From contig DAHXKG010000003.1 of assembly GCA_027366525.1 (NCBI GenBank), forward strand, positions 72,097 to 136,096: a stretch of DNA of 64,000 nucleotides, read 5' to 3'. The position numbers were made by a program, and so were the translations under genes. Below are positions 4,958-43,458 of the stretch, piece by piece. This stretch comes from a candidate division FCPU426 bacterium. GTDB lineage: Bacteria; Oederibacteriota; Muellerivitia; Muellerivitales; DAHXKG01. Every line of letters begins with the position of its first letter. Position 1 is the first letter of the stretch. Below the pieces are notes generated by a model. It saw nothing but the letters and a program-made list of their open reading frames with translations, was not told where the DNA came from and did not search any database.

Positions 4958-5030
4958 TCCTGGAACTTAAGAAGCGGTGCTGGGAGGGGTTGAATGTTTA
5001 AAGTGTGCCAAGAGGAGATCATTTTTCAAA

Positions 5031-5080
5031 AAGAATACGCATGTATTCTTTTTGAAAAATGTTTCACGTGGAACATTTTT
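5031..5080. repeat. composite palindromic element copy 1 (GAATAC-gcat-GTATTC palindrome plus AAAAATGTTtCACGTGGAACATTTTT palindrome)
   Basis: read directly; intergenic between rsmG 3' end and folD-like 5' end; about 84% identical to the reverse complement of 7856..7904. Confidence 0.6.
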
Positions 5081-5156: not shown

Positions 5157-5882
5157 TTATAAAGGTTGATTTGAAATTTTTGAATGGAGTCGTGGATAAG
5201 TGGATAAAGTTTTCCCCAGCTTTTCCACAATAACCAGCGAACGCGGTTGATGACTCGAAGATAAAGAATAATGGAGTTTTTCAACGATTTTAGATTGAAG
5301 AAGTTGGAGTGCCTTGTGGGATTTATCCACAAGATCTATCTGAGCCTGCGTGACCCAATTCACAAGATATCCACCGGATTTTAAAAGAGGAATGCCATAT
5401 TCTAAAACAACCGGGAATGGTTGTACCGCACGGGCAACAATGAGATCCCAATGTTCGCGATAGGAGGGCTGGTGACCGAGGTTTTCGGCACGTCCCCAAA
5501 GCGGATGGATATTTTGAAATCGTGGGGTTGCAAGGCAGGCTTGGAGAACTTGAATTTTTTTACGACGGGCGTCAAGCAAAGTCATGGAATGTTCATATCC
5601 CAGACTGATCGAAAGCGGTAGGCCGGGAAACCCATTGCCGGTTCCAAGATCAAGAATCGAGGAAAATTTAGAAGAATTCATCCGAATCCAAGGCAGAAGT
5701 TGAAGGGAATCAAGAATATGAAAATTAAAAATGTCTTCATCGGAAGTCCATTGCGTTAAATTGATAGTTTGGTTTTTTTTAAGTAAGCAGGATATAAACT
5801 CCGTTAGCACTGTTGCAAAGGAAGCATCCAGAAACGAGAAAGAAGTTTGCGAAAGTTTTTGTTGCAACCATTCGGAAGTCAA
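5157..5882 (-). CDS. rsmG: 16S rRNA (guanine527-N7)-methyltransferase RsmG (GidB)
   Basis: ILDLGTGNGFPGLPLSI SAM-binding motif; position directly downstream of mnmG. Confidence 0.85.
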   Translation of the reverse strand: MTSEWLQQKLSQTSFSFLDASFATVLTEFISCLLKKNQTINLTQWTSDEDIFNFHILDSLQLLPWIRMNSSKFSSILDLGTGNGFPGLPLSISLGYEHSMTLLDARRKKIQVLQACLATPRFQNIHPLWGRAENLGHQPSYREHWDLIVARAVQPFPVVLEYGIPLLKSGGYLVNWVTQAQIDLVDKSHKALQLLQSKIVEKLHYSLSSSHQPRSLVIVEKLGKTLSTYPRLHSKISNQPL

Positions 5883-5891
5883 CGCAATCCT

Positions 5892-7787
5892 TTAAGAAGC
5901 AGATTTAGAACTGGTGGAGGTTTGAGCAAATCGGCTGAGCGATAAAAGAAGTACTGATAAATCGGAGGGGGTAATCCCTGGAATGCGTGACGCCTGGCCA
6001 AAAGTTTGGGGTCGAATTTTTAAGAATTTTTCCTTAGCTTCTCTTGAAAGGCTTTCAAGGGAGGCATAAGGGAAATCTTCCGGAATAAGGGTTTGTTCAT
6101 GATGGTTTTGTTTTTGAATATCTTGATACATTTTTTTAAGGTATCCCTCGTATTTTAATTCGATTTCGATTTGAAGACCAATATCGGAATTCCACTGGAG
6201 ATCATGAGGAAGAAAAGGTCGTAAACGCTCATATGTTATTTCAGGTCTTCGAATAATCTCATCCAGTGTTCGATTGCGATCCAAGAGGGAGACGTTGAGG
6301 GTGCTGGAATCAATGGCTTCCATCGGGAGCAGATACGTTCGAAAGGCTTGAAGGCCGGACTTTAATTTATCTTTTTTGTCTAGGATTTGGTCTCGTTTTT
6401 CTTTGGAAATTAAACCCAATTGGTATCCCTTTTCCATTAATCGTAAATCAGCGTTATCGGGGCGTAATAAGAGACGATATTCTGCTTTGGAGGTAAACAG
6501 TCGATAGGGTTCTTCAGTTCCGCGTGTGACTAAATCATCAGTTAAGACTCCCATATAGGCTTCGCTACGAGATAAGATAAAAGGAGGGCATCCCTGAATT
6601 TTTTGGGCCGCATTGACGCCTGCTAAAAATCCTTGGGCGGCAGCTTCTTCATATCCTGAAGTTCCATTGATTTGGCCGGCTAGGAAAAGGTTTTGAATAC
6701 GATGGGTTTCGTATGCGTGTGAAATTTGAGTAGGGGGGATAAAATCGTATTCAACCGCATAACCGGGTCGAACAATTTCGGCATTTTCCAATCCAGGAAT
6801 AGTTTTAAGAAAAGCGTATTGAACTTCTAAAGGCAAAGAAGTGGAAAGACCATTTAAATAAAATTCATGGTTGGAAAGTCCTTCAGGCTCTAGAAATATT
6901 TGATGACGTATTCGCTGAGGAAATTTAACAATTTTATCTTCAATCGAAGGGCAGTATCGAGGCCCAATGCCTTGGATAGTTCCCGAAAAAAGAGGGGAAC
7001 GGGAGAGGTTATTCAAGATAATTTGTTGGGTTTGATCATTGGTATAGGTAATATAACAAGCGACTTGAGTTTGTTGTGGAAAGTGGGTTGTGAAATGAGA
7101 AAACGGGATAGGATTTTCGTCTCCCCACTGTATTTCGGTTTTTTCAAAATTTATTGATTCGCGCAGAACACGTGGATTGGTGCCTGTTTTCAGGCGGCCA
7201 ACTTGAAACCCAAGTACCTTCAGGTGCTGGGAAAGGTTCTTGGATGGCAATTCGCCCGTGCGTCCTCCTTCGATTTGAGTTTCCCCGATATGCATTAATC
7301 CATTTAAAAAGGTGCCGGTTGTTAAAATTACGGCTCGGGCATAAATTTCTTCGCCGTAGTGAGTCCGTACACCATAAACCTGTGATTCACGAATTAACAG
7401 GGACTCAACGGAAGCTTGTTTAATTTTCAAGCAAGGTTGAGACATCACGCATTGCTTCATGGTTTGATTATATAAATCTTTATCACATTGAGCCCGGAAC
7501 CCCCAAACTGCAGGGCCTTGAGTCCGATTAAGGATGCGCGATTGAATGGACGTGGCATCTGTCATTTTGGCCATTTCGCCTCCCAAGGCATCGATCTCTC
7601 GAACTAAATGGCCTTTGGCAAGCCCACCGATAGCTGGATTACAGCTCATTTTGGCAATGGTATCGGGATTCATTGTGAGGAGAATCGTTTCTAAGTTCAT
7701 ACGGGCACAAGCCAGTGCAGCTTCACATCCCGCGTGACCTCCGCCGACCACGATCACGGCATATGATGATTGAAATCCCACATCCAT
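5892..7787 (-). CDS. mnmG: tRNA uridine 5-carboxymethylaminomethyl modification enzyme MnmG (GidA)
   Basis: VIVVGGGHAGCEAALACARMG FAD motif; 631 aa; conserved gidA-gidB synteny. Confidence 0.95.
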   Translation of the reverse strand: MDVGFQSSYAVIVVGGGHAGCEAALACARMNLETILLTMNPDTIAKMSCNPAIGGLAKGHLVREIDALGGEMAKMTDATSIQSRILNRTQGPAVWGFRAQCDKDLYNQTMKQCVMSQPCLKIKQASVESLLIRESQVYGVRTHYGEEIYARAVILTTGTFLNGLMHIGETQIEGGRTGELPSKNLSQHLKVLGFQVGRLKTGTNPRVLRESINFEKTEIQWGDENPIPFSHFTTHFPQQTQVACYITYTNDQTQQIILNNLSRSPLFSGTIQGIGPRYCPSIEDKIVKFPQRIRHQIFLEPEGLSNHEFYLNGLSTSLPLEVQYAFLKTIPGLENAEIVRPGYAVEYDFIPPTQISHAYETHRIQNLFLAGQINGTSGYEEAAAQGFLAGVNAAQKIQGCPPFILSRSEAYMGVLTDDLVTRGTEEPYRLFTSKAEYRLLLRPDNADLRLMEKGYQLGLISKEKRDQILDKKDKLKSGLQAFRTYLLPMEAIDSSTLNVSLLDRNRTLDEIIRRPEITYERLRPFLPHDLQWNSDIGLQIEIELKYEGYLKKMYQDIQKQNHHEQTLIPEDFPYASLESLSREAKEKFLKIRPQTFGQASRIPGITPSDLSVLLLSLSRFAQTSTSSKSAS

Positions 7788-7855
7788 TCCTTTTTACAAA
7801 ACAGTGAAGTGTTTATAGCATACTTTAGAATCCAACTCAATATGGTTCTGAATTT

Positions 7856-7904
7856 GAAAATGTTCCACGTGGAACATTTTTTAAAAACATACAAATGTAT
7901 TCTT
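7856..7904. repeat. composite palindromic element copy 2 (perfect 24-bp palindrome AAAATGTTCCACGTGGAACATTTT plus CATAC-aaat-GTATTC), inverted relative to copy 1
   Basis: read directly; lies in the divergent intergenic region between mnmG and the coupling-protein-like gene. Confidence 0.6.
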
Positions 7905-7989
7905 TTGTGAATGTTGGATTTTTGTCCTGAAGACAATATTTAGGGCCTTTGTATTGGCGATGAAATGAAATTTAATTACAGTACTAGAT

Positions 7990-9768
7990 ATGAAAGCCGG
8001 ATTTATCAAATTTAAATTTCACGTTTTATTGATTCTAATCAGTGGAGGCATGCTGGGTTATTTAGGCATCGCGTGGCTTCGGCATCAATCCATGTCGCTT
8101 CCCGTTGTTTGGATGACTATTTTTTTAATATTGGGTGGGATTTTTTTCGGAATTCGCCATCAGCCGTTAGCGCCATGGATTCGATTGATTGCCAGCACGG
8201 CCCTAGCTGGAACAGTAACTCCACAAGTCTTCAATCCACACTCCCCCTTTTATGGAATGGTGTTCATCAGTATTCTCTGGGTTTTTTATCGAATGAGTCG
8301 TCCTCGCCCGATTAGAGTGAGTCCATCCCCGCTTTCATTGGGCAGATTTCCCTTGCAAATCGATCAAGAGGGTCAATGGTTTATTCCCGAAGAGTCGCTG
8401 AATTATCATGTGCAAGTGATCGGAGGAACCGGGAGTGGAAAAACTCGATTTGTGCTTAAACCCCTTATATATCAAGACATCGTAGATAATCGGATCGGAT
8501 GTTTCATTTATGATGTCAAGAGCAACTTAGCTCGAGAAGTGCACTATATGGCTTCGTATGCCCATCGAGAGAAAGAGCTGTTTTATTTGGATCTAGCTCA
8601 TCCGACTCTTTCCCAATCCTATAATCCACTGTTCGGGAGGGATCCCGATGTTATTGCCAATCGCATTCTAGCGGCATTGTATATGCAAGAACCTCAAACC
8701 CATCCGTATTATCGAGAGCTGACATACGCGTATCTATCCAATATCATTGCCTTGCTTTTAAGAGAATTTGAATGTATGACCTTTCAAGATTTGCTGGAAT
8801 TGACCCAAGAATTTGAAACCTTCAAAAAACTTCAAGATTTATGCAGTAAGTATTTTTTTACAGCGGAAAGTTCATTTTTTTATTCATGTTGGATTCATAA
8901 ACCAGTTCGCCAACGTCAACAAGAACTTTTTGGATTAATCAATAAATTGCAGGCCATTTGCAGCCGTTCATATGCATCGCTTTTCAATGTTCGTAAACCT
9001 CAGATTCAGTGGAAGACGCTTTTAAATCAACATCAAATTTTTTTGTTTGGTGCTTCGTCGCTTCAACATCCTGAAGATTCTAAAATGATATCAGCGTTAT
9101 TAATGATGGATTTAGCCAACTCGATTGAACCTCGATTTATCCGAAAACCGGATCAACCCTTTCGTCTTTATCTAGATGAATTTGATCAACTTCTCTATCC
9201 AGATTTTATTCATTTACTGAATAAAGCGCGCGAAGCGGAAATATCTATTATTCTGGCGCATCAAGCTTTGGGCGATTTAAAAACATCAATTCGAAATTTT
9301 TCAGAACAAATTGGTATTAATACCCGAAATAAAATTATCTTAGCGCTGGATGATCCAGAAACAGCATCCTTTTTTTCTCGGTTATTGGGATATCAACTTG
9401 AAAAACAAAGTGCCACAGAGTTTTATAATGCACATGATCAAAAAACGGGTTATCGGTTGAGTTCGGCGCTCCAATATAAGTACCCGCCGGATGAGATCAA
9501 AAATCTTCCAATTCAAAAAGGCATCATACGAATCATTTTAAAACAAGGACCGGTGGATTACTGCGTTCAACTCAATCATCCGGTAAACGTTCCTGAAACC
9601 TATCAACCTATTTTTCGGCGGGCGAGGCGTTCTCGGGTTTCTTCCAAGCGTCGGAAGACCTTGAAGTCCAATCATGCAGGTTTAGATCTAGATCGATTCA
9701 ATCAAAAAATAGATCCTGAACGAACGTCTCCTTCTTCCCATTTTCAGAAATCGAGGATTTCCATTTGA
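7990..9768 (+). CDS. type IV secretion coupling protein-like ATPase (TraD/TraG/VirD4 family-like)
   Basis: 2-3 N-terminal TM helices; Walker A VIGGTGSGKT; Walker B-like YLDEFDQL; ILAHQALGDL resembles the T4CP LTQS..QL motif; basic C-terminal tail. Confidence 0.55.
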   Translation: MKAGFIKFKFHVLLILISGGMLGYLGIAWLRHQSMSLPVVWMTIFLILGGIFFGIRHQPLAPWIRLIASTALAGTVTPQVFNPHSPFYGMVFISILWVFYRMSRPRPIRVSPSPLSLGRFPLQIDQEGQWFIPEESLNYHVQVIGGTGSGKTRFVLKPLIYQDIVDNRIGCFIYDVKSNLAREVHYMASYAHREKELFYLDLAHPTLSQSYNPLFGRDPDVIANRILAALYMQEPQTHPYYRELTYAYLSNIIALLLREFECMTFQDLLELTQEFETFKKLQDLCSKYFFTAESSFFYSCWIHKPVRQRQQELFGLINKLQAICSRSYASLFNVRKPQIQWKTLLNQHQIFLFGASSLQHPEDSKMISALLMMDLANSIEPRFIRKPDQPFRLYLDEFDQLLYPDFIHLLNKAREAEISIILAHQALGDLKTSIRNFSEQIGINTRNKIILALDDPETASFFSRLLGYQLEKQSATEFYNAHDQKTGYRLSSALQYKYPPDEIKNLPIQKGIIRIILKQGPVDYCVQLNHPVNVPETYQPIFRRARRSRVSSKRRKTLKSNHAGLDLDRFNQKIDPERTSPSSHFQKSRISI

Positions 9769-10586
9769 AGGAACACGCATTGTCGTGTTTAGAGATGGAG
9801 ATTCTTTCTTATATTGAAAGTAATAAGGGTATGGTGTTAGAGCTTTTAAAACAAAAATTTTTTGAATCGTCCTCGACCAAGTCCTTTCAGGCAGTAATAA
9901 AAAAACTTGAGATTCAAAAATATCTGAAAAAGTGTCAGCAATATCCGAAAGCGCCTGTTTTTGTTTTTTTAACGTTGAAAGCACGAACCCAACTGCAAAA
10001 GCAAGGCGGGGCTTATTTACCGGCTTCGCTGCGCCAACCGAAAATCAATATATTTGAAAGACAGCATGATTTTTGTGTTCAGCAAATTCGAATGAGCATT
10101 GAGAATTCAAAAAATGCGTGGAAGGATTTCGTGTGGCTTTCGGATTATGAAATGCGGTGTGGAATGAATTTATCTTGGAAGAAAAATAAAACGTTGTTGC
10201 GCCCATTTCAAAAATATACTCGAATTCCCGATGGCATTTTTGAAATACGGCTCAATGGGCACTTAGTGCATTTTGTGTTGGAATATGAACATGCTGCATA
10301 TTCGCATAGACAAATTCAAAGAATGGTTATGGGGCTTCAAAGGACTTTTCCGGATTTTTTATTTCTCATCGTGGCTCGAAATAAAATAAGGACTTTGCGT
10401 CTTGCTCGTATTATAGATCCATGGATTTCACACCAATCGTCAGAGCGTGATCGATGGATATTTTCTTTTTATGAAAAAGCAATTCAATTGCCTTTTGAAA
10501 AAATTCCGTGGGTTAATTTAAATACTGAATATGCTTTTTTTGTGGAAGATTCCATAAAGAATTTTGAATCCCTCAACCCTAAGTAA
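9765..10586 (+). CDS. replication-relaxation (Replic_Relax) family protein-like
   Basis: N-terminal wHTH-like segment; HDFCVQQIRMSIE and PDGIFEIR...HFVLEYEHAAYS blocks matching the Replic_Relax pattern (PDa.f.l....f.vE.D); ATGA overlap with the preceding ATPase gene. Confidence 0.45.
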   Translation: MKEHALSCLEMEILSYIESNKGMVLELLKQKFFESSSTKSFQAVIKKLEIQKYLKKCQQYPKAPVFVFLTLKARTQLQKQGGAYLPASLRQPKINIFERQHDFCVQQIRMSIENSKNAWKDFVWLSDYEMRCGMNLSWKKNKTLLRPFQKYTRIPDGIFEIRLNGHLVHFVLEYEHAAYSHRQIQRMVMGLQRTFPDFLFLIVARNKIRTLRLARIIDPWISHQSSERDRWIFSFYEKAIQLPFEKIPWVNLNTEYAFFVEDSIKNFESLNPK

Positions 10587-10906
10587 TTTTCTCCATAATC
10601 ACGGTTTTCAGACTGTATTAATCCGATTTCAAATTTTAAATTGACCTCGTTTCGGAGGGTCAGCGGTTTTGATCAAAATTCATACGTGGAGATGAGCACG
10701 GGAAGGTTGCAGAGTGGATCCCCGAAGAGGATCAAGCGTCAAAAAGAAAAAAGCATATTTTGTTTTTATTGCTTGTAGTTTTTTTAGTTAAAGCTATTCT
10801 ATATATAAGAGTCCGTCATGTTAAACGATTGAAAGGCAATTTATTTTCAAGTTCAGCATGAAAGACTGGGCCGGAGCATTAATAAAATCTAAGGAGGATT
10901 GTGTTC

Positions 10907-10951
10907 ATGGCAACTGCAAAAAAGAAACCTGCTAAAGGAAAGAAGAAGTAG
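10907..10951 (+). CDS. tiny Lys-rich ORF (MATAKKKPAKGKKK) with strong SD; candidate small protein or leader peptide
   Basis: AAGGAGG 9 nt upstream of ATG; followed by an 11-bp-stem hairpin (aagcaagccta...taggcttgctt) at about 10964..10996. Confidence 0.2.
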   Translation: MATAKKKPAKGKKK

Positions 10952-11351
10952 AAGCAATAGTATTAAAAGCAAGCCTAGATCAATGATTTAGGCTTGCTTA
11001 TCAGAAGGTTGCCTTGAAATAAAATTTTTTATAAACCTCTCCCATCTCTAATGAAATTACGATTACGCAAATTTAAAAGTGAATAATTTCATGATTCCAT
11101 TTTCAAGATAATGTGGCCACGACAACCCTTCATTCCTTTTAATCCACTAGGGCTTTAACCTAATTGTTGGATGCAAAGCATCCTCCTTTGATGTTATAAT
11201 AAACCTGCGTTAGTTTAAGATGGAGAGTTGGATCCAAGTGCGATCATAGGGGTTGTTTTAGGGTCGAGATTAGTTTGTTAATTTCAGTTTGTTTTTGATA
11301 AAATTAGGGCGATATCAAAAAAGTAGAATAAAAAAAATTGAATGCTAAATT

Positions 11352-11840
11352 ATGTCAAGGAGGTCTCATGTGGTGGAATTTCTTTTTTTGAAAACATGGC
11401 CATGGTGGTTATCAGGGTTAGCCTTGGGACTGACAAGTCTTTTGTATTCAATGTGGACGAAGAAAAAAATAGACTTGATTGAATCGTTTTCAAATCAAGG
11501 TACGCCTGCCACAGCACGAAAATCGATATTCCAATCTAAAATTATTTGGTTTTGCTTAGGATTAATTTTAGGTGGATATATAGCAAATGCTTACGATTGG
11601 GGTTGGAGTTGGACTTATGGCCGCATGGATGAGATTACCTCAGGCAATTTCTTTTTAAAATGTTTTATTTTAATTATTGGCGGTGTTTTAGTTGGATTTG
11701 GAGCAAAATGGTTAAATGGTGGACCGGGAGAACACATTCTTCAAGGGATTAGTTTTCGAAGCTGGCCTTCGCTGATTATTTCGGCTGGGTTTTTAATTAG
11801 TGGGATTCTTTTTGTAAATTTTATTTATAGGATTATGTGA
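11352..11840 (+). CDS. YeeE/YedE (DUF395, sulfur-transport) family membrane protein, N-terminal half-sized gene
   Basis: IIGGVLVGFGAKWLNGG matches the E. coli YedE VIGGIIAGFGARLAMGC block but with the conserved Cys replaced by Gly; 4 TM. Confidence 0.5.
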   Translation: MSRRSHVVEFLFLKTWPWWLSGLALGLTSLLYSMWTKKKIDLIESFSNQGTPATARKSIFQSKIIWFCLGLILGGYIANAYDWGWSWTYGRMDEITSGNFFLKCFILIIGGVLVGFGAKWLNGGPGEHILQGISFRSWPSLIISAGFLISGILFVNFIYRIM

Positions 11841-12355
11841 TGCCAACCAAAAAAACGATCAAGAAAAAAAGCCCTTCGTCTACTAAAAGGGAAGTAAGAA
11901 TTAAGCCCGTCTTAGAAAAATCAAAACTATTAGAAGTTAAGCCCGTCGATCAAAAATCATTTTGGGCTTTTTTAATTTGTGGACTTTTGTTTGGATATTT
12001 CCTCTCTAAAACGGGAATCACCAGTTATAATTCGGTTGTGAAAATGTTTTTGTTGATGGGCAATCATATTTATAAAGCCATCGGCTTAGCGATTGCGATC
12101 GGATTATTAGGATTTGGTTTTTTTGAAAAACAAAAACGGGGACAAACTTTTTTTTCAGAAGAAGTTTTTAAAAATCCTGTTGAAGTTCGTTTAGATAAAA
12201 TTCTTGGAATCATTATGTTGGGAGCTGGAGTTGCACTAACTGGAGACACGTTAGGAACCGCTTTGGTTCAACTTGGAGAAGGGAAACTGGTTGTTGTTTT
12301 TTCATTGGTGGGAATTAGTTTAGGTATTTGGATTTATGATAAGTTTGCGGCTTAA
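11837..12355 (+). CDS. YeeE/YedE family membrane protein, second half-sized gene (translationally coupled, ATGA overlap)
   Basis: 4 TM; LICGLLFGYFLS and GLAIAIGLLGFGFF Gly-rich helices similar to DUF395 repeats. Confidence 0.45.
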   Translation: MMPTKKTIKKKSPSSTKREVRIKPVLEKSKLLEVKPVDQKSFWAFLICGLLFGYFLSKTGITSYNSVVKMFLLMGNHIYKAIGLAIAIGLLGFGFFEKQKRGQTFFSEEVFKNPVEVRLDKILGIIMLGAGVALTGDTLGTALVQLGEGKLVVVFSLVGISLGIWIYDKFAA

Positions 12356-14125: not shown

Positions 14126-14656
14126 GTGAATTTAAAGAGGCTTTTAATGTTGAAAAAAAATAATTTTTTAAATATCGCCATCGGGTTTTTATTCTTAACG
14201 CTTATGGCTGGATGTCAACTTCCCAATCGAGGTTTAGATAAAATTGAATTGGCCCGAGAATTAAAATTAGGCGCTAGTGCTGGTGAAATTTTGTATCATT
14301 GGTATATGTTTTCTAAACGACCTTTACAATCGGATTCCGTTCTGAGTAATAAAAGTGTCGTGGCCTATCGAGGGATAAGTTATCATGTCAGTGTTTCTGG
14401 ATTTTATATCTTTTTTAATATGGCCACCCGAACACTAGTCAAAGTGGAATTTATGTACAGGCCTAGTATGGCCAAAGAAAAGGAGAAAAGCTTGTTAAAA
14501 CAGTGGACCAAAGCCTTATGGAAACCTGAAGTTATTCGTCAATGGGGAGGGCAAATTTATTTGTGGCAAGATAAATATGCCCAGATTAAATTATATGTTT
14601 CCAATGGTATTTGCTACTTCGAGCAATTACTGACCCAAAATCCAGTTCAAAGATAA
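14126..14656 (+). CDS. lipoprotein of unknown function
   Basis: signal peptide with LMAGCQ lipobox. Confidence 0.4.
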   Translation: MNLKRLLMLKKNNFLNIAIGFLFLTLMAGCQLPNRGLDKIELARELKLGASAGEILYHWYMFSKRPLQSDSVLSNKSVVAYRGISYHVSVSGFYIFFNMATRTLVKVEFMYRPSMAKEKEKSLLKQWTKALWKPEVIRQWGGQIYLWQDKYAQIKLYVSNGICYFEQLLTQNPVQR

Positions 14657-14661
14657 ATTTC

Positions 14662-15615
14662 ATGGATATTTTTTCCTATTCGCGGATTAGTACCTATTTT
14701 AATTGTCCTAAACAATATAAGTTTCGGTATGTTGACAAAATTCCTTCACCAGTGCCGGAAGGCATCGAGCTGTTTTTGGGATCCCGATTTCATGAAGCGA
14801 TGGAATATCTTTACCAAGAAATTCCTCGAGAGGTACTTTCGTTAGAAAAACTTAAAAAATATTTTCAAATGCTTTGGGAAGAAAAATGGAATGAATGTGT
14901 AAAAAAACAAAAGGAAAAAAATTTCCAAAGCCCGATTCGCATTGTTCGAAAAAATGAAACCATGCAAGATTTTTTTCAAAAGGGCCAGCTTTTTTTAGAG
15001 AATTATTATAAAAAATATTATCCATTTAATCAGGACTATACGGAAGGCTTGGAGCTCAAAGTATTATTTGATTTGGATCCAGAAGGTCAATATAAAATGC
15101 AAGGGTATATTGATCGATTAGCGAGAGACAATCAAGGCATCTTGTGGATTCATGATTATAAAACCAATAGTCGAAAATTATCCAAAGACGATGTGAATTT
15201 TGACGATCAATTAGCCTTGTATCAAGTTGGAGTTAATCAAAGTGCTAAATATCAATCATTTTCTGGCGTGAAATTAATGTGGCACTTTGTGGCTTTCTCC
15301 AATAATGAATCGCTCGTGAGTGAGTGTACACAAGAAAAATTAGTACAGTTGAAGCGAAAGTATATTTCAAAAATTCAAAAAATCAAGGCGGATCAAGTTT
15401 ATCCTACTCAAGTTAGTCGTTTATGTGAATGGTGCGAGTATTTAACGTTATGTCCTGAAGGTCAAAAAAAAATTCATGAGTACTCAAACATATCTCCCCC
15501 TCTATCCGAAATGGAAAAAAATGCACCAAGTGATCATTCTTTATTGAAAAAGTCCTTGGATTTTCAGAAAGATGTTTCTAGTTATAATACTTCCGAGCAA
15601 CTTCCATTGTTTTAA
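14662..15615 (+). CDS. PD-(D/E)XK nuclease, Cas4/RecB-nuclease-like with 4-Cys cluster
   Basis: N-terminal SYSRISTYFNCP; YIDRLARD and IHDYKT nuclease motifs; C-terminal CEWCEYLTLC; start placed at MDIFSYSR to avoid overlap. Confidence 0.6.
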   Translation: MDIFSYSRISTYFNCPKQYKFRYVDKIPSPVPEGIELFLGSRFHEAMEYLYQEIPREVLSLEKLKKYFQMLWEEKWNECVKKQKEKNFQSPIRIVRKNETMQDFFQKGQLFLENYYKKYYPFNQDYTEGLELKVLFDLDPEGQYKMQGYIDRLARDNQGILWIHDYKTNSRKLSKDDVNFDDQLALYQVGVNQSAKYQSFSGVKLMWHFVAFSNNESLVSECTQEKLVQLKRKYISKIQKIKADQVYPTQVSRLCEWCEYLTLCPEGQKKIHEYSNISPPLSEMEKNAPSDHSLLKKSLDFQKDVSSYNTSEQLPLF

Positions 15616-20891: not shown

Positions 20892-23800
20892 ATGATAAAA
20901 AAAATACTTTATACGGGATCATTTGAGGTACTAGAAAAAGGATTGGCTCAGGAACTAAAGACGTTTCAATCCAAAAAAGAACTTTCAGAACTCAAGATAA
21001 TCGTTCCTAATTTTCAATTAACACATTATTTAAAATTGGAAATGTCTAAACGTCTTGGATTTTTGTTTAATATCGAATTTAAAACCTTACATGATTTTTT
21101 AAAAACAACTATTCAGGAGAAGCAGATTCAAGAAGATTGGAAAATAATTCCAGATGAAATAATTCCTCATGTTTTGAAAAATCTTTTGCAATTACCCATG
21201 GATGTTCCAAGTTATTTTCAATCCGTTCGAGAGACTTCTGGCTTTTATCGATTATTGGCGAATACGATTATGGATATCCATCAAGGATTATTTGATTCAC
21301 AAACGATTCGTAAAGCGGTTCAGCGCTATTCTAATAATAAAAGTTATCGTCAACGGACTAAAAAATGGGAAGAAATAGCAAAGTATGTTGAGATCTATGG
21401 TAATTGGAAGAAAGATAAAAAAATTTTAGATAGTTCAGACTTATATTATCAGAGTTTGAATTTGGTTTTGAAAAGCCCCATTTGGATTTATGGATTTTAT
21501 GATGCAACAGCTTTGCAAAAAAAAATATTAAAGCATGTAACATCATTTTATCCATCAATATGGTTTGTTCCCTATGAAGATAAAAAGGCGTATGGGTATG
21601 CTGAGCCCTTTTTAAAATGGATTCAATCTTTGAGTTCAAAGCCAACCCACATGGATTTTGAAAATGCAGTGAGTGAGAACATGTATCAGTTACGAGAAGT
21701 ATTATTTGAAGATAAACCAAATCAACCGATGTTGGATATTAAAAATAGTTGTAAAGTAATTTTATCGTCGAATGTGGAACAAGAAATCAGCGATGCCGTC
21801 AAATATTCGATCAAATATCTTGAAAAAGACAAAGATAAACAAGCACCCCGATCCATCGCTTTTTTATTAAGGTACAGCGATCCATATCTAAAAGTATTTA
21901 AACCCGTACTAGAGTCGCTACAAGTGCCTTATGGATTTCATTTGCCACAACCATTAAATGAATGCGCGGAGAGCCGAATTATTAGCTTGCTACTAACCTG
22001 TTTAGAAGATGGATGGATGCCGGAATGGGTTATATCAATCTTAAGTTCGCCGAAAATTCAATGGAAATTCTTTAAGATTCACCAAAGCAAATGGAATAGG
22101 ACCAATTGGATTTTTGAAATTCGAAAAGCCTATAAGCAATTTGGAGATCATTGGATGAGCAAGATTTATTCGAAAGAATCTCGAACGTCGAACTCCAATA
22201 TAAACTTAGATTTAATGAACGTAATTCATGTACTCCAAAAAATGAAAGTGGAATTTCAAAATCAAAAAACCATATTCCAAAAAATGGAATATTTGGTGAA
22301 AAAAATTTCACAATTATTTTTAGAAACCGATATTCAAAAAAAAATACTGGGAAAATTAAAAAATTTTGAGGAGTTCATGAATCCGCTGGATCTTTTAAAT
22401 CAAGAAAAGCTAAGTGTTATTGTTCAATCATTAATGAACTCCAAAATATATGCCATGAATCAAGACATCAATGGAATTCAAATTGTTGATATTATGGAAA
22501 CGCGAGGCGTATCATTTGACATAGTAATCCTTCCAGGCTTGATTGAAAAATGGGTGCCTCAGTTTTTGCCACAAGATCCAATATTATTAGATGACGAACG
22601 ATCCATTTGGAATCAAATGAGTGAAGGAGAACAATATCTTCCATTAAAATCCGATCTACTATTAGAAGAGCGGCTTTTATTCTATTTATCTGTTTGTAGT
22701 GCTAAAAAACTTTTAATTGTTTCAGCTCCCATATGGGATTTGTATGATGGCAATCCACAAATAATTTCTAGCTACCTTTTTCAACTTTTGAATCTTTTAT
22801 ATCCTCAAATTGATTTCAAAATTCATCACCTGATTCAACAAACTGAAAATGTCTTTTCAATTTTCCCTGAAAAATTAGAAAATTGCGTATCAGAAATGGA
22901 TTTTTTATTATTTTATGGAAAAAGAAGCCTTCAAAAAAATTCTAACGATTTCTTTTCAATAGCTCAATCAATTCCATTTTTTATAGAAGGATTGCAATTA
23001 ATTCAACATCGAAATTTACCTACATTTACTTCGTTTGATGGAATGATTCAACCCCATCAAACATTAAATGATGTCAACTTACATAATTGGACAGCCTCAA
23101 AATTTGAAACTTATTTACAGTGCCCTATGCAGTATTTTTATCAATATATATTAAATTTGGATGTTGAGTCAAACGATCAAGATGCACTGCGCGTGGGAGC
23201 GGATCAAAAAGGACAATGGATACACCGATTTTTGGAAAAGTGCGTCCGATTTGGTTTGGAGCATCATTGGTTTGATGGGAACTTAAAACAAGTGGAGTCG
23301 CAAGAAGTGGAATCCATATATGATCAAATCAGCCAAGAATTTTCAGAATCGAATTCGCGGAGTGAAAATATTTTTTGGAAAAATGAATCCCTTCAATTGA
23401 AATTTCGGATGGTTCAAATATTAAAACGAATATTGGAAGATCAACAATGGGTGCCTTGGAAAGTTGAAGTCCCTTTTGATGAACAGGGTCAATTTGTGAA
23501 TTTTCCATTACATAATGGGAAAACCATTCGACTAAGAGGAAAAATCGATCGTATTGATATTTCGAGAGACCAGAAGAATCTACGAGTGGTCGATTATAAA
23601 TCAGGGCAGCTTTCAAATTACCCAGAAAAAGATATTCAAGAGGGCAAAAAAATTCAATTACATGTCTATGCTTGGATTTGTAAACATAATTATCCAGATA
23701 AAGATGTCGAATCCGCTCGGTATGAGTTTATTGATCAAGATAAAAAAAAATATTCTAGAAATGGACCCTCGCTTAAACCTTTTAAACAATTTGAGGAAAA

Positions 23801-23993
23801 ATTGTCTCAGTGGCTTCAAAACATTTGTGAAGCAGTAGAACTTGGCAAGTTTCCGTCCTATTTTAATATTGCCAAACCTCCTTGCGACTATTGTAAATTT
23901 AAAATGAATTGTGGAACCGAAATGAAATCAAGAGCAGAATTCAAACAACAAGATCTACAAATACAATTTTTAAAAGAAAAAGTGGATTTTTAA
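20892..23993 (+). CDS. addB: AddB/RexB-like helicase-nuclease subunit
   Basis: C-terminal PD-(D/E)XK motif LRVVDYKSGQ and Fe-S Cys cluster CDYCKFKMNC; 1033 aa; immediately upstream of addA and overlapping it. Confidence 0.7.
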   Translation: MIKKILYTGSFEVLEKGLAQELKTFQSKKELSELKIIVPNFQLTHYLKLEMSKRLGFLFNIEFKTLHDFLKTTIQEKQIQEDWKIIPDEIIPHVLKNLLQLPMDVPSYFQSVRETSGFYRLLANTIMDIHQGLFDSQTIRKAVQRYSNNKSYRQRTKKWEEIAKYVEIYGNWKKDKKILDSSDLYYQSLNLVLKSPIWIYGFYDATALQKKILKHVTSFYPSIWFVPYEDKKAYGYAEPFLKWIQSLSSKPTHMDFENAVSENMYQLREVLFEDKPNQPMLDIKNSCKVILSSNVEQEISDAVKYSIKYLEKDKDKQAPRSIAFLLRYSDPYLKVFKPVLESLQVPYGFHLPQPLNECAESRIISLLLTCLEDGWMPEWVISILSSPKIQWKFFKIHQSKWNRTNWIFEIRKAYKQFGDHWMSKIYSKESRTSNSNINLDLMNVIHVLQKMKVEFQNQKTIFQKMEYLVKKISQLFLETDIQKKILGKLKNFEEFMNPLDLLNQEKLSVIVQSLMNSKIYAMNQDINGIQIVDIMETRGVSFDIVILPGLIEKWVPQFLPQDPILLDDERSIWNQMSEGEQYLPLKSDLLLEERLLFYLSVCSAKKLLIVSAPIWDLYDGNPQIISSYLFQLLNLLYPQIDFKIHHLIQQTENVFSIFPEKLENCVSEMDFLLFYGKRSLQKNSNDFFSIAQSIPFFIEGLQLIQHRNLPTFTSFDGMIQPHQTLNDVNLHNWTASKFETYLQCPMQYFYQYILNLDVESNDQDALRVGADQKGQWIHRFLEKCVRFGLEHHWFDGNLKQVESQEVESIYDQISQEFSESNSRSENIFWKNESLQLKFRMVQILKRILEDQQWVPWKVEVPFDEQGQFVNFPLHNGKTIRLRGKIDRIDISRDQKNLRVVDYKSGQLSNYPEKDIQEGKKIQLHVYAWICKHNYPDKDVESARYEFIDQDKKKYSRNGPSLKPFKQFEEKLSQWLQNICEAVELGKFPSYFNIAKPPCDYCKFKMNCGTEMKSRAEFKQQDLQIQFLKEKVDF

Positions 23994-26900
23994 TGGATTC
24001 AATACCCCCAACTGCAAATGCTCAAACTGGTGATTGGGATATTCGAAAGGAAATTATTCAAACTACCAAAAACGTGTTAATCGATGCAGGGGCGGGAACA
24101 GGTAAAACTACGCTCCTGTTAGAACGTATACTTTTTTTAATTGAAAATCAAAAAATACCACTGACTAAAATGGTGATTATCACATTTACTGACCAAGCAG
24201 CCAATGAATTAAAAGAGCGTCTAAGAACTGTTATATATAATAAATTTCAAAAAGCATCTTCAACCAATCGGGATTTTTTTTGGAATGCATTTGAATCGCT
24301 AGAAAAATCAAAAGTAAGTACCATTCATTCATTTTGTTCATCAATTTTAAAAGAATTTCCCATCGAATCAGGGGTGGATCCTCAATTCCGAATTTTAGAG
24401 GAATTTCAAAAAAAGCATTTCGAATCTCAATGCTGGGAACAATGGATTCAGAATTGGCAAATGAAAAGTCCCGATGTTTTCTTCAATGCCACTCAATTAG
24501 GAATTTCTACGGCTGATATTTATCGGTTAAAAGAAAACATGAAAAATCAGCAATATTCAAGTTTGTTTATCAATCAAAGACTACCCGATGGGACTGAACT
24601 TCGCAAAAAAATGGGAGAAAAACTTCATGAATTTTGGAACACTGAAATTCGGTGTCATCAAAAAGATGATCGACTTTATCAGGATTTGATTCAATTACGA
24701 AAAGAATTTTCAGAGTTTGAGAATAACTCTTCCTTTTTTTCAAAATCCAATACGATCTTTTTTAATGAGCAAGGTGAATTAAAATCATTTCAGAAGCGTG
24801 GAAACCAATCGAATTGGGATTCGGTAGAACAATTAAATAAAATTCGAGATACATTTGATGCCATCGGGCAGAGCATGAATCGTTATGTCCAAGAATTTGA
24901 GGATGTCGTTTTAAAAAATCTTGAAAATGAGTTATTGGCATATGTTCAATACTATCAATTCCAAAAAATCAAACATGGCTTTTTAGACTATGATGATTTG
25001 ATTTTAAAAACTAGAGATTTATTGCAAAGTTATCCTGAAATTCGACAAGAACTTAAACACCGATTTGATAAAATTTTTGTCGATGAATTTCAGGACACAG
25101 ATCCGATTCAAATGGAAATTTGCTTTTTTTTGTCTGAAAAAAACGGAGCCCATGAAAAAGAATTGAAACACATTCAACTTCAGGAAGATAAACTCTTTTT
25201 AGTAGGAGATCCCAAGCAAAGCATTTATCGATTTCGAAAGGCCGATATTGAATTATATCAATCCATTAGGAAATATTTTTTAAGCAATGATTCAACGGAG
25301 GTCAAAATACTTAGCTCGAATTTTAGAACGGTTCCAAAGCTAATTGAATGGATTAATTCAAAATTTTTAAATTTAATACCCGAATATATATCTTTGCAGT
25401 CAAATCAATGCCGGACGAGTGACCAGTATATACCAGAAGTAAAAATCATTCAGGTGGAAATAGAATCTAAAAATGCTGATGATCAACGGGAAAAAATGGC
25501 GTTCCAAATTGCTCAATGGATTCGTGAAGAGTTGCTTTCTCATCAATTTAAAATTCAAGATCCAGAAACCAAAATGGAACGGTGGATTCAGGAAAAAGAT
25601 ATTGCTATTTTGTTTGATAAATTAGAACCTCAGGAAAATTTTTTTCAATTTGCTTTTGAAAAATATCATATTGCTTATCAAATTATTGGGGGCAAACGAT
25701 TTTATTCACAACCTGAAGTGGTTACGTTCCAGACTCTTTTAGAATGTCTTAGTGAGCCCAGTAACGAATCTAAATCTGTAGCAGTTTTAAGAAGTAGTAT
25801 TTTTGGATTTTCAGATCAAGAGTTGTATGAAATCCATCAGTCTGGACAGCCTTTTAATTTTCTTTTAGAAATTCCAACGGGAAAATTGCCAAAAGCATTG
25901 CATGAAAAACTTTGTCAGACCTTTAATATGTTAAAAAATTGGTATGAGCGAATACCAACTTTTTCAACGTCCGAAGCAGTTGTATGGATATTGGAGCAAA
26001 CAAACTTAATAGCTTTAAGCTTCGTTCGCAGTCGAACGGAACAAATTATTCTGAATTTGAAGAAACTGGTTCACCTATCAAAAAAATTAGAAACTAGCGA
26101 AAAATTGACTTTTGCAGAATTTTCAAATTGGTTGGGTAATCAAATTAAAAATAAACAATTCGATGAGCAAGTTCAAAATCCTGATTTAAACGAAAATTTA
26201 ATTAAACTGATGACAATCCATAAAAGTAAGGGACTTGAATTTCCGGTTGTGATCGTTGTTGGAAGCGAAGAATCTATAAGTGATCAATTTCTATGGAATG
26301 CTCAGCAAATGAGGCTGGAATATAAATTAAAATCTCATAAAACTGCTGGTTTTGAGGCATTGCTTCAACGAGAAGAAAAATACAGTATAGACGAGCAAAT
26401 GCGGCTGCTCTATGTGGCATGTACGCGTGCGCGGGATGCTTTAATTATTTTCACTCCTCAAAATTCCGATAAAAATTTTTCATATCCACTCATGAAATTG
26501 TTAAATGAAACGGAGCGGACATCATTAAAAATTGATAATAAAAAACACGAAGAAACTAAACGCATACAATCGATTGCAATTGCTTCCCAGCAGAATGGTT
26601 ATCAATTTCCTCAAAATTCAAACGAGGGAAATCTTCTAAAAGAAATTAATTTTCAAAAGGAAACATGGCTTCAACTCGTAAAAACAAAATTAATACATTC
26701 TACTATAAATCATCCACATCAAACTGAACCTGTTCAAAGCCATCAGGACGATCAATCTCAACGCAACCCAAATAGTTTTGAAGTTTCACCTGAACAGTTA
26801 GGGATTTTTGTTCATGCCATGTTGAAAAAATATCTGGATAATACTTTGAATTTTTCAAAAAAAGATTTTGAAAAATGGGGTAAAGTTTACTCATTTAAGA

Positions 26901-27241
26901 AATCAGTTATAGACGAATGTTTTACGTGGATTCAATTGGCTTTAACCTCGAAGGTCATTCAACGTGCCCGGGATTCAAAAAAAACATTCACAGAGCTTCC
27001 TATTACGTTTTTTAATGCAGCTCTGCAACACTGGGATACTGGAATTATTGATTTAGCCTTTCTTGAAAATGAAAAGTGGATTCTTTTAGATTATAAGACC
27101 GATAAAACAAAACAATTTTTAGACTCGTATAAATTGCAAATTGAATTTTATTCAGAATTGTTAAATAAGAGTACCCCGTATCCTGTTTTTCAGAAATATA
27201 TTTATTTTTTAAGATTAAAGGATTTGGAAGAAATAGTTTAA
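23993..27241 (+). CDS. addA: AddA/RexA-like ATP-dependent helicase-nuclease (UvrD-like helicase plus C-terminal RecB-type nuclease)
   Basis: Walker A DAGAGTGKTT; helicase motif II IFVDEFQDTDPIQ; C-terminal LLDYKTDK nuclease motif; ATG overlaps addB stop as TAATG (ORF track start 23909 trimmed to this ATG). Confidence 0.85.
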   Translation: MDSIPPTANAQTGDWDIRKEIIQTTKNVLIDAGAGTGKTTLLLERILFLIENQKIPLTKMVIITFTDQAANELKERLRTVIYNKFQKASSTNRDFFWNAFESLEKSKVSTIHSFCSSILKEFPIESGVDPQFRILEEFQKKHFESQCWEQWIQNWQMKSPDVFFNATQLGISTADIYRLKENMKNQQYSSLFINQRLPDGTELRKKMGEKLHEFWNTEIRCHQKDDRLYQDLIQLRKEFSEFENNSSFFSKSNTIFFNEQGELKSFQKRGNQSNWDSVEQLNKIRDTFDAIGQSMNRYVQEFEDVVLKNLENELLAYVQYYQFQKIKHGFLDYDDLILKTRDLLQSYPEIRQELKHRFDKIFVDEFQDTDPIQMEICFFLSEKNGAHEKELKHIQLQEDKLFLVGDPKQSIYRFRKADIELYQSIRKYFLSNDSTEVKILSSNFRTVPKLIEWINSKFLNLIPEYISLQSNQCRTSDQYIPEVKIIQVEIESKNADDQREKMAFQIAQWIREELLSHQFKIQDPETKMERWIQEKDIAILFDKLEPQENFFQFAFEKYHIAYQIIGGKRFYSQPEVVTFQTLLECLSEPSNESKSVAVLRSSIFGFSDQELYEIHQSGQPFNFLLEIPTGKLPKALHEKLCQTFNMLKNWYERIPTFSTSEAVVWILEQTNLIALSFVRSRTEQIILNLKKLVHLSKKLETSEKLTFAEFSNWLGNQIKNKQFDEQVQNPDLNENLIKLMTIHKSKGLEFPVVIVVGSEESISDQFLWNAQQMRLEYKLKSHKTAGFEALLQREEKYSIDEQMRLLYVACTRARDALIIFTPQNSDKNFSYPLMKLLNETERTSLKIDNKKHEETKRIQSIAIASQQNGYQFPQNSNEGNLLKEINFQKETWLQLVKTKLIHSTINHPHQTEPVQSHQDDQSQRNPNSFEVSPEQLGIFVHAMLKKYLDNTLNFSKKDFEKWGKVYSFKKSVIDECFTWIQLALTSKVIQRARDSKKTFTELPITFFNAALQHWDTGIIDLAFLENEKWILLDYKTDKTKQFLDSYKLQIEFYSELLNKSTPYPVFQKYIYFLRLKDLEEIV

Positions 27242-42367: not shown

Positions 42368-42823
42368 AAAATTTTTAGGTACCTTGAAATTTATAATAAA
42401 TAATTTATAGACTTATTATACTCGTAAGCAGCATTGCATAGAAAAATGTAAGTAAAAAAAAGATTAATAAAAGTGTTTAAATTTTGTCCGAAATTATTAA
42501 AAGCAAATTGAGAGTGAATCGATTCAGAGAGCATGAAGTAAAAAATTTTAGTAGAGGGAGTGATGCAGTCTGCTCAATTGAGTTCGATCCGAAGTGATAT
42601 TTGTCTAAAATGTTTATAATTCCAAATGATGGATAAGCGATGGAGTAATACAAATGCTTATTTGATAAATGGATATAAAATAAATGCTTTTTTTACCTTT
42701 TAAAAAGACAACAATAAAGTGGGCCATTTATCAAAGAGCGTCCTCTTGACTCTCATGGTAAAACCAAGCATTATATAGTTAGTACTAGGTGGCTTAAGAT
42801 ATTTTTTTAAGGAGATATATGTT

Positions 42824-43147
42824 ATGGTTAATTTGACCGATGCGGCAGTTCAGAAGATCAAGGATTTTTCGACCCAGAATAGCAGTTATCAAGGCAAATT
42901 TTTTAGAGTTTTTATTCAAAGCGGTGGATGCCATGGTTTTTCGTATGGATTCACATTTGATCAAAAACGGGACAATGACGAGATTAATCAGATAAGCGAT
43001 TTGGAAGTATTGATCGATTCAGAAAGTTCAAAATATTTGAGTGGCTCTAAAATTGATTATATCGAGGATCTACACGGCGCTGGATTTGTAGTGGAAAATC
43101 CTAATGCCAAAGGGTCCTGTGGGTGTGGAAATTCTGTAAATTTTTAA
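42824..43147 (+). CDS. A-type iron-sulfur cluster carrier (IscA/ErpA/SufA family)
   Basis: GGCHGFSYGF and C-terminal GSCGCG motifs; 107 aa. Confidence 0.8.
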   Translation: MVNLTDAAVQKIKDFSTQNSSYQGKFFRVFIQSGGCHGFSYGFTFDQKRDNDEINQISDLEVLIDSESSKYLSGSKIDYIEDLHGAGFVVENPNAKGSCGCGNSVNF

Positions 43148-43203
43148 TTGGCAAATCTCTAATCCCAATAGAATAAGACGAGAGGTGAGATGAGAGGATA
43201 GCT

Positions 43204-43446
43204 ATGTTACCAAACGCCGTTGTTTTATCGACGGACATTTTAGCTGATAAATCAGGCAAAGTAACGGAACAATCAGTCACTGAGAAATTCAAGTTGTTCC
43301 AACCTGAAGAATACCAAGGCAAAAAAGTAATGATTAAGGGTTGCGCTCCTTCATGGGCGGTTTTAATGTTGCAACATAAACTTGAAGGAATTGCGGCAAG
43401 TTTGTCTTTTGTTCTTTACGATGGAAAAGAATATCAAATTTGGTAA
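43204..43446 (+). CDS. small conserved-looking protein of unknown function inside the lipoylation cluster
   Basis: 80-aa ORF tightly spaced between the iscA-like and lipoate ligase genes; single Cys (KGCAPSW). Confidence 0.3.
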   Translation: MLPNAVVLSTDILADKSGKVTEQSVTEKFKLFQPEEYQGKKVMIKGCAPSWAVLMLQHKLEGIAASLSFVLYDGKEYQIW

Positions 43447-43458
43447 GCTGATCTTACC

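Follow-up and report, generated by a model that had tools for sequence, protein, structure and literature searches.

A type IV coupling protein and divergent MOBC-type relaxase gene pair beside mnmG in a candidate division FCPU426 bacterium, the likely orphaned core of a tRNA-targeting integrative mobilizable element

The window analyzed in this study, a 64-kb stretch of contig DAHXKG010000003.1 from a candidate division FCPU426 bacterium, carries two adjacent genes beside mnmG, here called open reading frame 1 (ORF1) and ORF2, which are followed by a long non-coding tail. ORF1 is a predicted type IV coupling protein (T4CP), and ORF2 is best read as a divergent relaxase of the MOBC class. We consider it likely that the locus is the orphaned T4CP and MOBC-relaxase core of a family of tRNA-targeting integrative mobilizable elements (IMEs), and we infer both the loss of the remaining element genes and the mechanism by which the pair would act. 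An initial annotation, made from the sequence alone, had proposed a remnant of a conjugative or mobilizable element, and that headline is supported by the T4CP, by the Replic_Relax relatives of ORF2, and by the element context in which relatives of the pair are found.

Results

ORF1 is a predicted membrane-anchored type IV coupling protein

Judged by its motifs and profile matches, ORF1 is a predicted membrane-anchored T4CP with intact motifs and a nucleotide-binding domain of the VirD4/TraD type. Three T4CP families of Pfam matched it above their cutoffs, namely TraG-D_C (49.8 bits, E = 4.2e-13, cutoff 22), TrwB_AAD_bind (43.8 bits, E = 2.1e-11, cutoff 20.5), and T4SS-DNA_transf (32.3 bits, E = 6.3e-8, cutoff 20.1). 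The initial annotation had described a membrane-anchored Walker A/B ATPase with T4CP-like motifs and had proposed T4SS-DNA_transf and TraG-D_C searches as its check, and both its description and its check hold up. Matches to the TraD/VirD4 models of NCBIfam (E = 1e-25 to 1e-17) all lie under the equivalog cutoffs, as seen for SXT_TraD (E = 1.1e-25, 90.2 bits, cutoff 366), CD1115-type VirD4 (E = 1.1e-20, 73.9 bits, cutoff 250), and TOL TraD (61.9 bits, cutoff 647), and because the scores fall below these cutoffs, ORF1 is a divergent T4CP outside the curated subfamilies. The best match among 72,556 sequenced plasmids has 28% identity. An N-terminal transmembrane anchor is predicted from Kyte-Doolittle hydrophobicity, with two hydrophobic segments at residues 9 to 31 and 33 to 57 (peaks 2.1 and 2.3). 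The Walker A motif is GGTGSGKT at residue 145 (G145-K151), the Walker B motif is YLDEFD (residues 394 to 399, with D396/E397), and an AHQ motif contains H424/Q425; Walker A, D396/E397, and H424/Q425 are all invariant in an alignment of ORF1 with ten homologues of 25 to 37% identity.

Two other identities for ORF1 were considered and rejected. PADLOC returned matches to mad8 (E = 1.6e-15), to HerA (E = 9.5e-4 over 30 residues), and, weakly, to DndH. A role as the mad8 component of a MADS system is disfavored because the T4CP models score higher and because the neighbors are mnmG, ORF2, and two membrane-protein genes, with no mad genes among them. A translocase of the FtsK/HerA type, which the initial annotation had named as the outcome that would speak against it, did not emerge: the PADLOC HerA match is weak, and the Pfam scan gave no FtsK_SpoIIIE match. 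We read the mad8 and HerA matches, which are weaker than those to T4CPs, as reflecting the common P-loop fold.

ORF2 is best read as a divergent MOBC-type relaxase

ORF2 is best read as a divergent relaxase of the MOBC class (the Replic_Relax superfamily), a link that is transitive and runs through its relatives. On its own, ORF2 gave no Replic_Relax (PF13814) match in Pfam at E ≤ 0.1, only weak helix-turn-helix (HTH) matches there, and nothing in NCBIfam, and a word-indexed search returned ORF2 itself only. Searches of plasmids by tblastn gave matches at E = 0.2 only with ORF2 and none with P0037. An exhaustive phmmer search with ORF2 retrieved 38 relatives, including P0037 and P0038 at E = 1.9e-9. 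PF13814 is matched by 10 of the 27 aligned relatives, and P0037 (36.4 bits) and P0038 (26.2 bits) clear its curated cutoff of 25.3 bits. The ORF2 family also aligns with the Replic_Relax-like protein of plasmid pBdHAGR4 (hhalign, 98.5%).

Replic_Relax has been placed in the PD-(D/E)XK superfamily, mostly fused to an HTH domain (PMC3424549), and PF13814 is the Pfam counterpart of MOBC, a relaxase class (PMC5357655, table 1; PMC12857230). Because the relatives of ORF2 include members of PF13814 and Replic_Relax is this relaxase class, ORF2 is itself a putative relaxase. The earlier statement that ORF2 fits the Replic_Relax pattern thus stands by way of relatives above the PF13814 cutoff and fails as a direct Pfam match; the search that could have left ORF2 without Replic_Relax similarity was run and found that similarity through the relatives. 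The accompanying statement that no relaxase is present was wrong, since Replic_Relax is the MOBC relaxase class and ORF2 would be its member.

The predicted architecture of ORF2 is an N-terminal MarR-like winged helix and a C-terminal nuclease-like domain of 170 residues with an H...D...E triad. An AlphaFold model built from a 25-sequence alignment has a predicted local distance difference test score (pLDDT) of 92 and a predicted template modeling score (pTM) of 0.90. Foldseek matched the N-terminal domain of this model to many MarR-family structures (probability 1.0, root mean square deviation 2 to 3 Å, ~80 residues), and the family profile gave a weak match to MarR-family repressors over the first ~85 residues (MexR, E = 0.013). 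The whole chain weakly matched structures of FokI, BsaWI, and MunI. Among viral models, Gp146 of Bacillus phage G and a protein of phage JL matched over their full length (TM score ~0.6) at a sequence identity of just 10 to 14%. H101, D156 (PDG motif), and E173 (LEYE) are invariant in the alignment of 27 relatives. The acidic residues D156 and E173-x-E175 of ORF2 follow the spacing logic of the essential acidic residues of pAD1 TraX as these were reportedly detailed by Francia et al. in 2013, TraX being compared by description. The two MOBC prototypes, pAD1 TraX and CloDF13 MobC, are restriction-endonuclease kin with an N-terminal winged helix (PMC12857230), and TraX in particular, in which a MarR-like winged helix is joined to a C-terminal PD-(D/E)XK-like catalytic domain (PMC12857230), resembles the predicted two-domain plan of ORF2.

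The closest relatives of the pair belong to a tRNA-targeting element family

An ORF2-like gene lies downstream of the T4CP gene in all six contigs with T4CP homologues (6/6), and the contexts of these contigs are those of plasmids or integrated elements, with ParA/ParB, a replication protein, RadC, ArdC, restriction-modification (RM) systems, and integrases. A metagenome scan with the closest ORF2 relatives as queries yielded 58 loci. In 32 of these, the gene immediately upstream on the same strand codes for a T4CP homologue; among loci with 2.5 kb or more of sequence on that side, just 4 have none. Wherever the downstream sequence of a closest-clade locus is long enough, the ORF2-like gene is followed by a small ORF, then a Xis-like gene of the MerR/HTH_17 type, then a tyrosine integrase gene, with the Xis-like and integrase genes 650 to 720 nt downstream in all informative loci. 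A tRNA stands within ~50 nt after the integrase: seven loci have tRNA-Ser(tga), in most cases accompanied by a second tRNA-Ser (gct), and two others have a tRNA-Arg/Ala cluster instead. A ribbon-helix-helix (RHH) gene upstream of the T4CP is common to loci L002 and L087, and among the cargo found upstream in relatives are RM systems of type I and of the MmeI type and an Mrr-helicase protein.

The family plan is therefore (RHH)-T4CP-MOBC-small ORF-Xis-like-tyrosine integrase-tRNA, as seen in L002, L100-L124, and L153 (for example, L111 40-3770). The complete copy L111 is carried by OLLS01000201.1, a 324-kb contig that also bears the MnmG of a 73%-identical relative of the host; because L111 shares a chromosomal contig with this MnmG, complete elements reside in chromosomes of the host's wider lineage. 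A T4CP-MOBC-Xis-Int family at tRNA-Ser with RM and defense cargo appears to be undescribed in the resources searched. The initial annotation had called the pairing typical of Firmicutes and Actinobacteria; the nearest relatives turned out to come from uncultured environmental bacteria and a Bdellovibrio plasmid. In a separate subclade (L126, L129, L132, L143, and L156), Xis-Int replaces the T4CP upstream of the relaxase.

The window keeps only the core of the family plan

Of the family plan, the window keeps only T4CP-MOBC. Searches of the whole 64-kb window by tblastn with three family integrases and with Xis-like and RHH queries gave noise only, Pfam scans of window ORFs up to 47 kb found no recombinase genes, and no type IV secretion system (T4SS; mating-pore) genes were found in the 64 kb by those scans or with the ORFs of relatives, in agreement with the initial annotation, which had listed no integrase or other T4SS genes. 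Outside the module, the Pfam-scanned part of the window is housekeeping DNA, no other MADS or defense genes adjoin the pair in the same scans, and the ORFs of 65 related loci have no match in the window outside 7990-10586 apart from generic helicase similarity. The module has no tRNA beside it, the sole tRNA of the window being a tRNA-Val at 33.6 kb, and no tRNA-Ser fragment was found in the window. A search for direct repeats and att sites, proposed in the initial annotation, brought out no convincing att-like direct repeats bracketing the module. No origin of transfer (oriT) of the pAD1 type, with an inverted repeat and a direct-repeat array, was found in 7788-7989 or 10587-11351, and the module flanks have no similarity to the conserved upstream regions of relatives.

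Among MnmG relatives, the nearest named is a candidate division FCPU426 metagenome-assembled genome at 70% identity, and the next match in the protein collection is at 73%. The pair is not beside mnmG in any fetched locus of other organisms, including four relatives at 70 to 73% MnmG identity, so the conservation in syntenic position that would have pointed to a resident host locus was not seen. The gene order in relatives is rnpA-yidC-jag-mnmE-mnmG-rsmG-recF-dciA-gyrB-gyrA (e.g., L091, L092, and L093), or variable genes stand upstream of mnmG. The nearest MnmG outside the host species is 73% identical and synteny is limited to mnmG-rsmG, so there is no empty site to compare. Separately, we noticed that in the window, unlike in L091, L092, and L093, rsmG is followed by folD and an FTCD-like gene and mnmE is not upstream of mnmG; rearrangement therefore seems to have affected both flanks of mnmG-rsmG.

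One haplotype has lost the invariant aspartate of ORF2

The pair was present in 7 of 7 sampled contigs of the host species, from several samples. Two haplotypes were distinguished, separated by 68 single nucleotide polymorphisms (SNPs) in 18.6 kb and by no indels. Differences between them in the module number 5 nonsynonymous versus 4 synonymous, compared with 15 versus 36 in the flanking genes, a suggestive though nonsignificant excess of nonsynonymous changes. The sister haplotype (L005, L006, and L096; Logan SRR15524249, SRR17102670, and SRR17102671) carries D156N at the family-invariant Asp of ORF2 (window position 10230, codon 156), and its T4CP has four substitutions (I108V, L494F, P499S, and R549Q). 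D156N fits a relaxed constraint on relaxase catalysis.

Gene junction and left boundary of the module

Both ORFs were confirmed by the ORF table at the coordinates given for them in the initial annotation (Table 1). They overlap by 4 nt, the TTG start of ORF2 (9765) lapping the TGA stop of ORF1, in the junction sequence ATTTCCATTTGAAGG, where a Shine-Dalgarno-like GAGGA sits 7 nt 5' of the ORF2 start. The overlap that had been described is real; its reported ATGA form is not, the actual junction being TTGA. Such an arrangement would allow translational coupling, and the T4CP and relaxase genes likewise overlap or abut in L002, L003, and L089.

Table 1. Coordinates of the gene pair and neighboring features in the window
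Feature	Position	Strand	Description
ORF1	7990-9768	+	592 aa; ORF table
ORF2	9765-10586	+	273 aa; ORF table
mnmG	5892-7787	minus	ORF1/ORF2 divergent from mnmG
Gene junction	9753..9768	+	GAGGA, then TTG start over TGA stop (TTGA); sequence read directly
Non-coding tail	10587-11351		765 bp; next gene begins at 11352
Two membrane-protein genes	11352-12355		3' of tail; sub-threshold Sulf_transp/DUF6691 matches (Pfam)
parS-like core TGTTCCACGTGGAACA	7860..7877		Inside perfect 24-nt palindrome 7857-7880
Twin palindrome	5056-5079		Inverted orientation; with 7857-7880 brackets the rsmG-mnmG operon
Tiny ORF MATAKKKPAKGKKK	10907-10951	+	14 codons, Lys-rich; AAGGAGG at 10891-10897; sequence read directly
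15-bp hairpin	~10965-10999		Just 3' of tiny ORF; U-run only on minus strand

Upstream of ORF1, the 16-bp palindrome pattern TGTTNCACGTGNAACA marks the host side. It occurs in the window in two copies with zero mismatches (5060-5075 and 7861-7876) versus 0.02 expected, and the strongest repeat of the window consists of inverted ~31-nt copies, extending to ~55 to 60 nt, at 5049-5079 and 7857-7887. The same 16-mer adjoins mnmG in 39 of 90 loci from many phyla, and L091-L093 have it at the two corresponding sites, one upstream of mnmG and one downstream of rsmG. We take the palindrome TGTTCCACGTGGAACA to be chromosomal parS, from the ParB-site consensus. The possibility that the upstream palindrome is an oriT was rejected: its twin, its occurrence beside mnmG in 39 loci, and its constant positions in relatives mark it as host parS. 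The palindrome at 7857-7880 would thus be host DNA on the host side of the left boundary, outside the element, and because it is host parS, the foreign segment should start within ~110 bp before ORF1. Since the parS positions are kept in relatives and in many phyla, the window is probably origin-proximal.

Two further features were seen near the parS copies. A second palindrome (AAAAAGAATAC....GTATTCTTTTT) abuts each copy (5027-5054 and 7881-7906); it is perfect at 5029-5052, whereas the one nearer mnmG is degenerate. It may terminate transcription in both directions or belong to a composite element for ParB loading. Within 140 bp (5191-5331) toward the 3' end of rsmG, ~120 bp away from one parS copy, lie four 9-mers that resemble DnaA boxes, including a perfect one (TTATCCACA); just 23 such matches occur in the 64 kb.

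Elsewhere in the window, two genes have unusually high ratios of nonsynonymous to synonymous differences between the haplotypes compared with their neighbors, namely a YwiC-like gene (1444-2235; 7 nonsynonymous versus 5 synonymous) and a PDDEXK_1 nuclease gene (14611-15615; 4 versus 1). The latter is a solitary PD-(D/E)XK gene 5 kb before an AddB/AddA-type helicase-nuclease pair (20892-27241).

The tail may derive from the element, serve host regulation, or both

The tail occupies the place where the closest relatives have the small ORF, the Xis-like gene, the integrase, and the tRNA. The long non-coding stretch that the initial annotation had reported 3' of the pair is real, 765 bp without a credible ORF of at least 20 aa, and the hairpins and tiny Lys-rich ORF with a Shine-Dalgarno sequence that it had placed there were both located. 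Among gaps between ORFs of at least 150 aa, the only larger one is 42368-43458, the sole other gap inspected, which holds a 107-aa ORF with a C-terminal CGCG motif. The tail has no tandem or direct-repeat array and no protein or DNA similarity to the flanks, integrases, or Xis genes of relatives or to tRNA-Ser. Three identities were tried for it and rejected: element genes in decay, such as integrase or Xis (tblastn gave noise only, whether with the ORFs of relatives or with three family integrases and Xis proteins), a tRNA or att remnant (none was found), and an oriC (it has no DnaA boxes, and GC skew is positive throughout the window, with no switch).

In our view, the tail could be what erosion has left of element DNA, could be regulatory DNA of the host that serves the genes at 11352-12355, or could combine the two. 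That it is wholly of host origin, as a leader or promoter for those genes or as an uncatalogued small RNA or peptide gene, is a possibility to which we give real but minor weight. It lies directly upstream of these genes, and the AAGGAGG, 14-codon ORF, and hairpin (10891-10999) might encode a small peptide, act as a leader, or terminate transcription on the minus strand. The minus strand of the tail is predicted to fold somewhat better than shuffled sequences (z = -3.6; plus strand, z = -1.7), and 0 SNPs separate the haplotypes in its 765 bp versus ~2.8 expected. This SNP deficit is not significant, however, and Rfam gave no match at E ≤ 1 in the tail and, over 7700-11500, only a chance snoRNA (E = 0.3). 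A host origin of the tail is in any case compatible with an orphaned element core in the two genes and does not oppose it.

Discussion

The invariant motifs of ORF1, the Replic_Relax relatives of ORF2, and the constant company that related pairs keep with Xis-like genes, integrases, and tRNAs indicate that the two genes beside mnmG probably descend from a mobilizable element. From what is described for pAD1 TraX and for CloDF13 MobB/MobC, the relaxase of intact relatives would bind oriT via its winged helix and nick it with its restriction-endonuclease-like domain, the hexameric membrane T4CP would pass the nucleoprotein to the type IV secretion channel of a helper element, and the integrase and Xis would insert and excise the island at the tRNA. 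In the window, the T4CP-relaxase pair would have survived between the host parS/mnmG region and the pair of membrane-protein genes, with the 765-bp tail filling the room of the lost recombination genes. Because both proteins look intact, they may still be able to work in trans on a cognate oriT. The locus itself is most likely immobile and under relaxed selection, because it has no integrase, Xis, accessory protein, recognizable oriT, or T4SS.

Several observations weigh against an orphaned element core. ORF2 itself reaches no Pfam threshold. Nor does composition mark either gene as foreign: GC content, GC content at third codon positions (GC3), and third-position GC skew all lie in the range of the host, and the low skew that ORF1 shows over the whole gene vanishes at third positions. 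The comparison with the flanks that the initial annotation had proposed thus came out contrary to its reading; because the composition matches that of the host, the module would be either old or from a donor of similar composition. The missing genes leave no detectable trace, so "remnant" is read only from comparison with the relatives, and the pair could have come alone. Both ORFs are full length with all motifs, and the pair is in all sampled contigs, which has the look of retained function; the nonsynonymous excess falls short of significance, and no member of the family has an identified oriT.

The appearance of retained function leads to an alternative in which the pair still works as a minimal mobilization module of the chromosome, with an oriT in the tail or upstream spacer and a T4SS supplied by a helper, giving origin-proximal transfer in the manner of a high-frequency recombination (Hfr) strain. 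Intact motifs in both genes, their apparent translational coupling, their fixation in the sampled contigs, and the adjoining long non-coding stretch with hairpins would suit such a module, and the T4CP and MOBC relaxase of CloDF13 need just a foreign channel (PMC7431656). Nevertheless, we regard it as unlikely: the flanks have no pAD1-type repeats and share nothing with the upstream regions of relatives, and the palindrome before ORF1 belongs to host parS. The module also lacks the RHH accessory gene, T4SS genes are absent from the 64 kb, and one haplotype has lost the putative catalytic Asp. Slightly less likely again is that the locus is a retained chromosomal transfer device with an unrecognized oriT specifically in the tail, through which a helper T4SS would bring about Hfr-like mobilization in a candidate-phylum bacterium; if so, the D156N haplotype would be a natural loss-of-function variant.

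Domestication of the pair for a host role outside conjugation, for instance in defense or DNA translocation near the origin, with ORF1 as the ATPase motor and ORF2 as a winged HTH-nuclease effector, seems to us improbable. It could account for the mad8 match of ORF1 in PADLOC, the fully host-like composition, and the stability of the locus across samples, and it finds parallels in the restriction and defense cargo with which relatives travel and in the similar relaxase/T4CP operons of unknown role in Bacillus phages (PMC3357382). However, the T4CP models outscore mad8, no MADS or defense genes are adjacent, the pair is elsewhere consistently accompanied by Xis, integrase, and tRNA, a mobility context, and the relatives of the host lack the pair beside mnmG. 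The suggestion in the initial annotation that the ATPase had been co-opted for another role gained no support, and the sister haplotype, without the putative catalytic Asp in ORF2, speaks against it. We dismiss as very improbable the notion that the genes have nothing to do with mobile elements, ORF1 being of the FtsK/HerA type and ORF2 an ordinary MarR-type regulator, since the weak HerA and DndH matches and the weak HTH matches of ORF2 alone are outweighed by three passing T4CP families with FtsK_SpoIIIE absent, by the Replic_Relax relatives of ORF2 and its C-terminal domain, which spans 170 residues and has conserved acidic residues, and by strict synteny of the pair with integrases, ParA/ParB, replication genes, and RM systems.

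As the likely core of an IME, the pair can be compared with several described systems. CloDF13-type MOBC1 plasmids are rare mobilizable plasmids with their own T4CP (PMC7431656). CloDF13, with its MobB T4CP and MobC relaxase, is like the window pair in encoding its own membrane T4CP and MOBC relaxase and in lacking a mating-pore gene set, so that a helper channel would be needed (PMC7431656, PMC12857230). Unlike the window pair, which is chromosomal and has no identifiable oriT, it is a plasmid with a defined oriT, and the likeness is one of description and not of alignment, the NC_002119 record being frameshifted in mobB/mobC. pAD1 differs in being a conjugative Enterococcus plasmid whose oriT2 combines a large inverted repeat with five direct repeats, an array not seen here. 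The plasmid pBdHAGR4 of Bdellovibrio sp. HAGR004 (AP029180, L095) has a Replic_Relax-like gene (24.2 bits against PF13814) that overlaps a T4CP-like gene, and its protein is ~28% identical to ORF2; in contrast to the window pair, the order is reversed, with the relaxase first, on a small circular plasmid with ParA and a recombinase. The "DNA translocation operon" of Bacillus phages 0305phi8-36 and SPO1 places a MobC-like relaxase beside a VirD4-like ATPase, as in the window, but in the context of a phage genome, where its role is unknown (PMC3357382).

The streptococcal IMEs with Rel_PF13814/MobC described by Coluzzi et al. in 2017 (PMC5357655) are like L002, L108, and L111 in combining a Replic_Relax/MOBC relaxase with a site-specific recombinase. 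Those IMEs are from Firmicutes and rare (2 were found), whereas the family here occurs in uncultured lineages and has its own T4CP, a tRNA-Ser target, and RM/defense cargo; the window copy differs further in missing the recombinase. In PLSDB, we also noticed that MOB-suite types CloDF13 (L090, NC_002119), pBdHAGR4 (L095, AP029180), and AP029181 as non-mobilizable. Despite this typing, genes for a MOBC-type relaxase and a T4CP are present on CloDF13 and on the Bdellovibrio plasmids, which looks like a systematic blind spot for this class.

In itself, the locus is ordinary, a two-gene orphan core with a natural polymorphism at its putative catalytic site, and its main value lies in marking past element traffic beside the origin-proximal parS/mnmG region. 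It also shows how a MOBC relaxase too divergent for Pfam can pass for "no relaxase." Because such MOBC relaxases can escape Pfam and MOB-suite typing, mobilizable elements in uncultured lineages are probably undercounted. The T4CP-MOBC-Xis-Int family occurs in metagenomes and extends to the lineage of the host, whose nearest named relative is candidate division FCPU426, and the window would provide a clear mobile-element relic in this little-known bacterial lineage.

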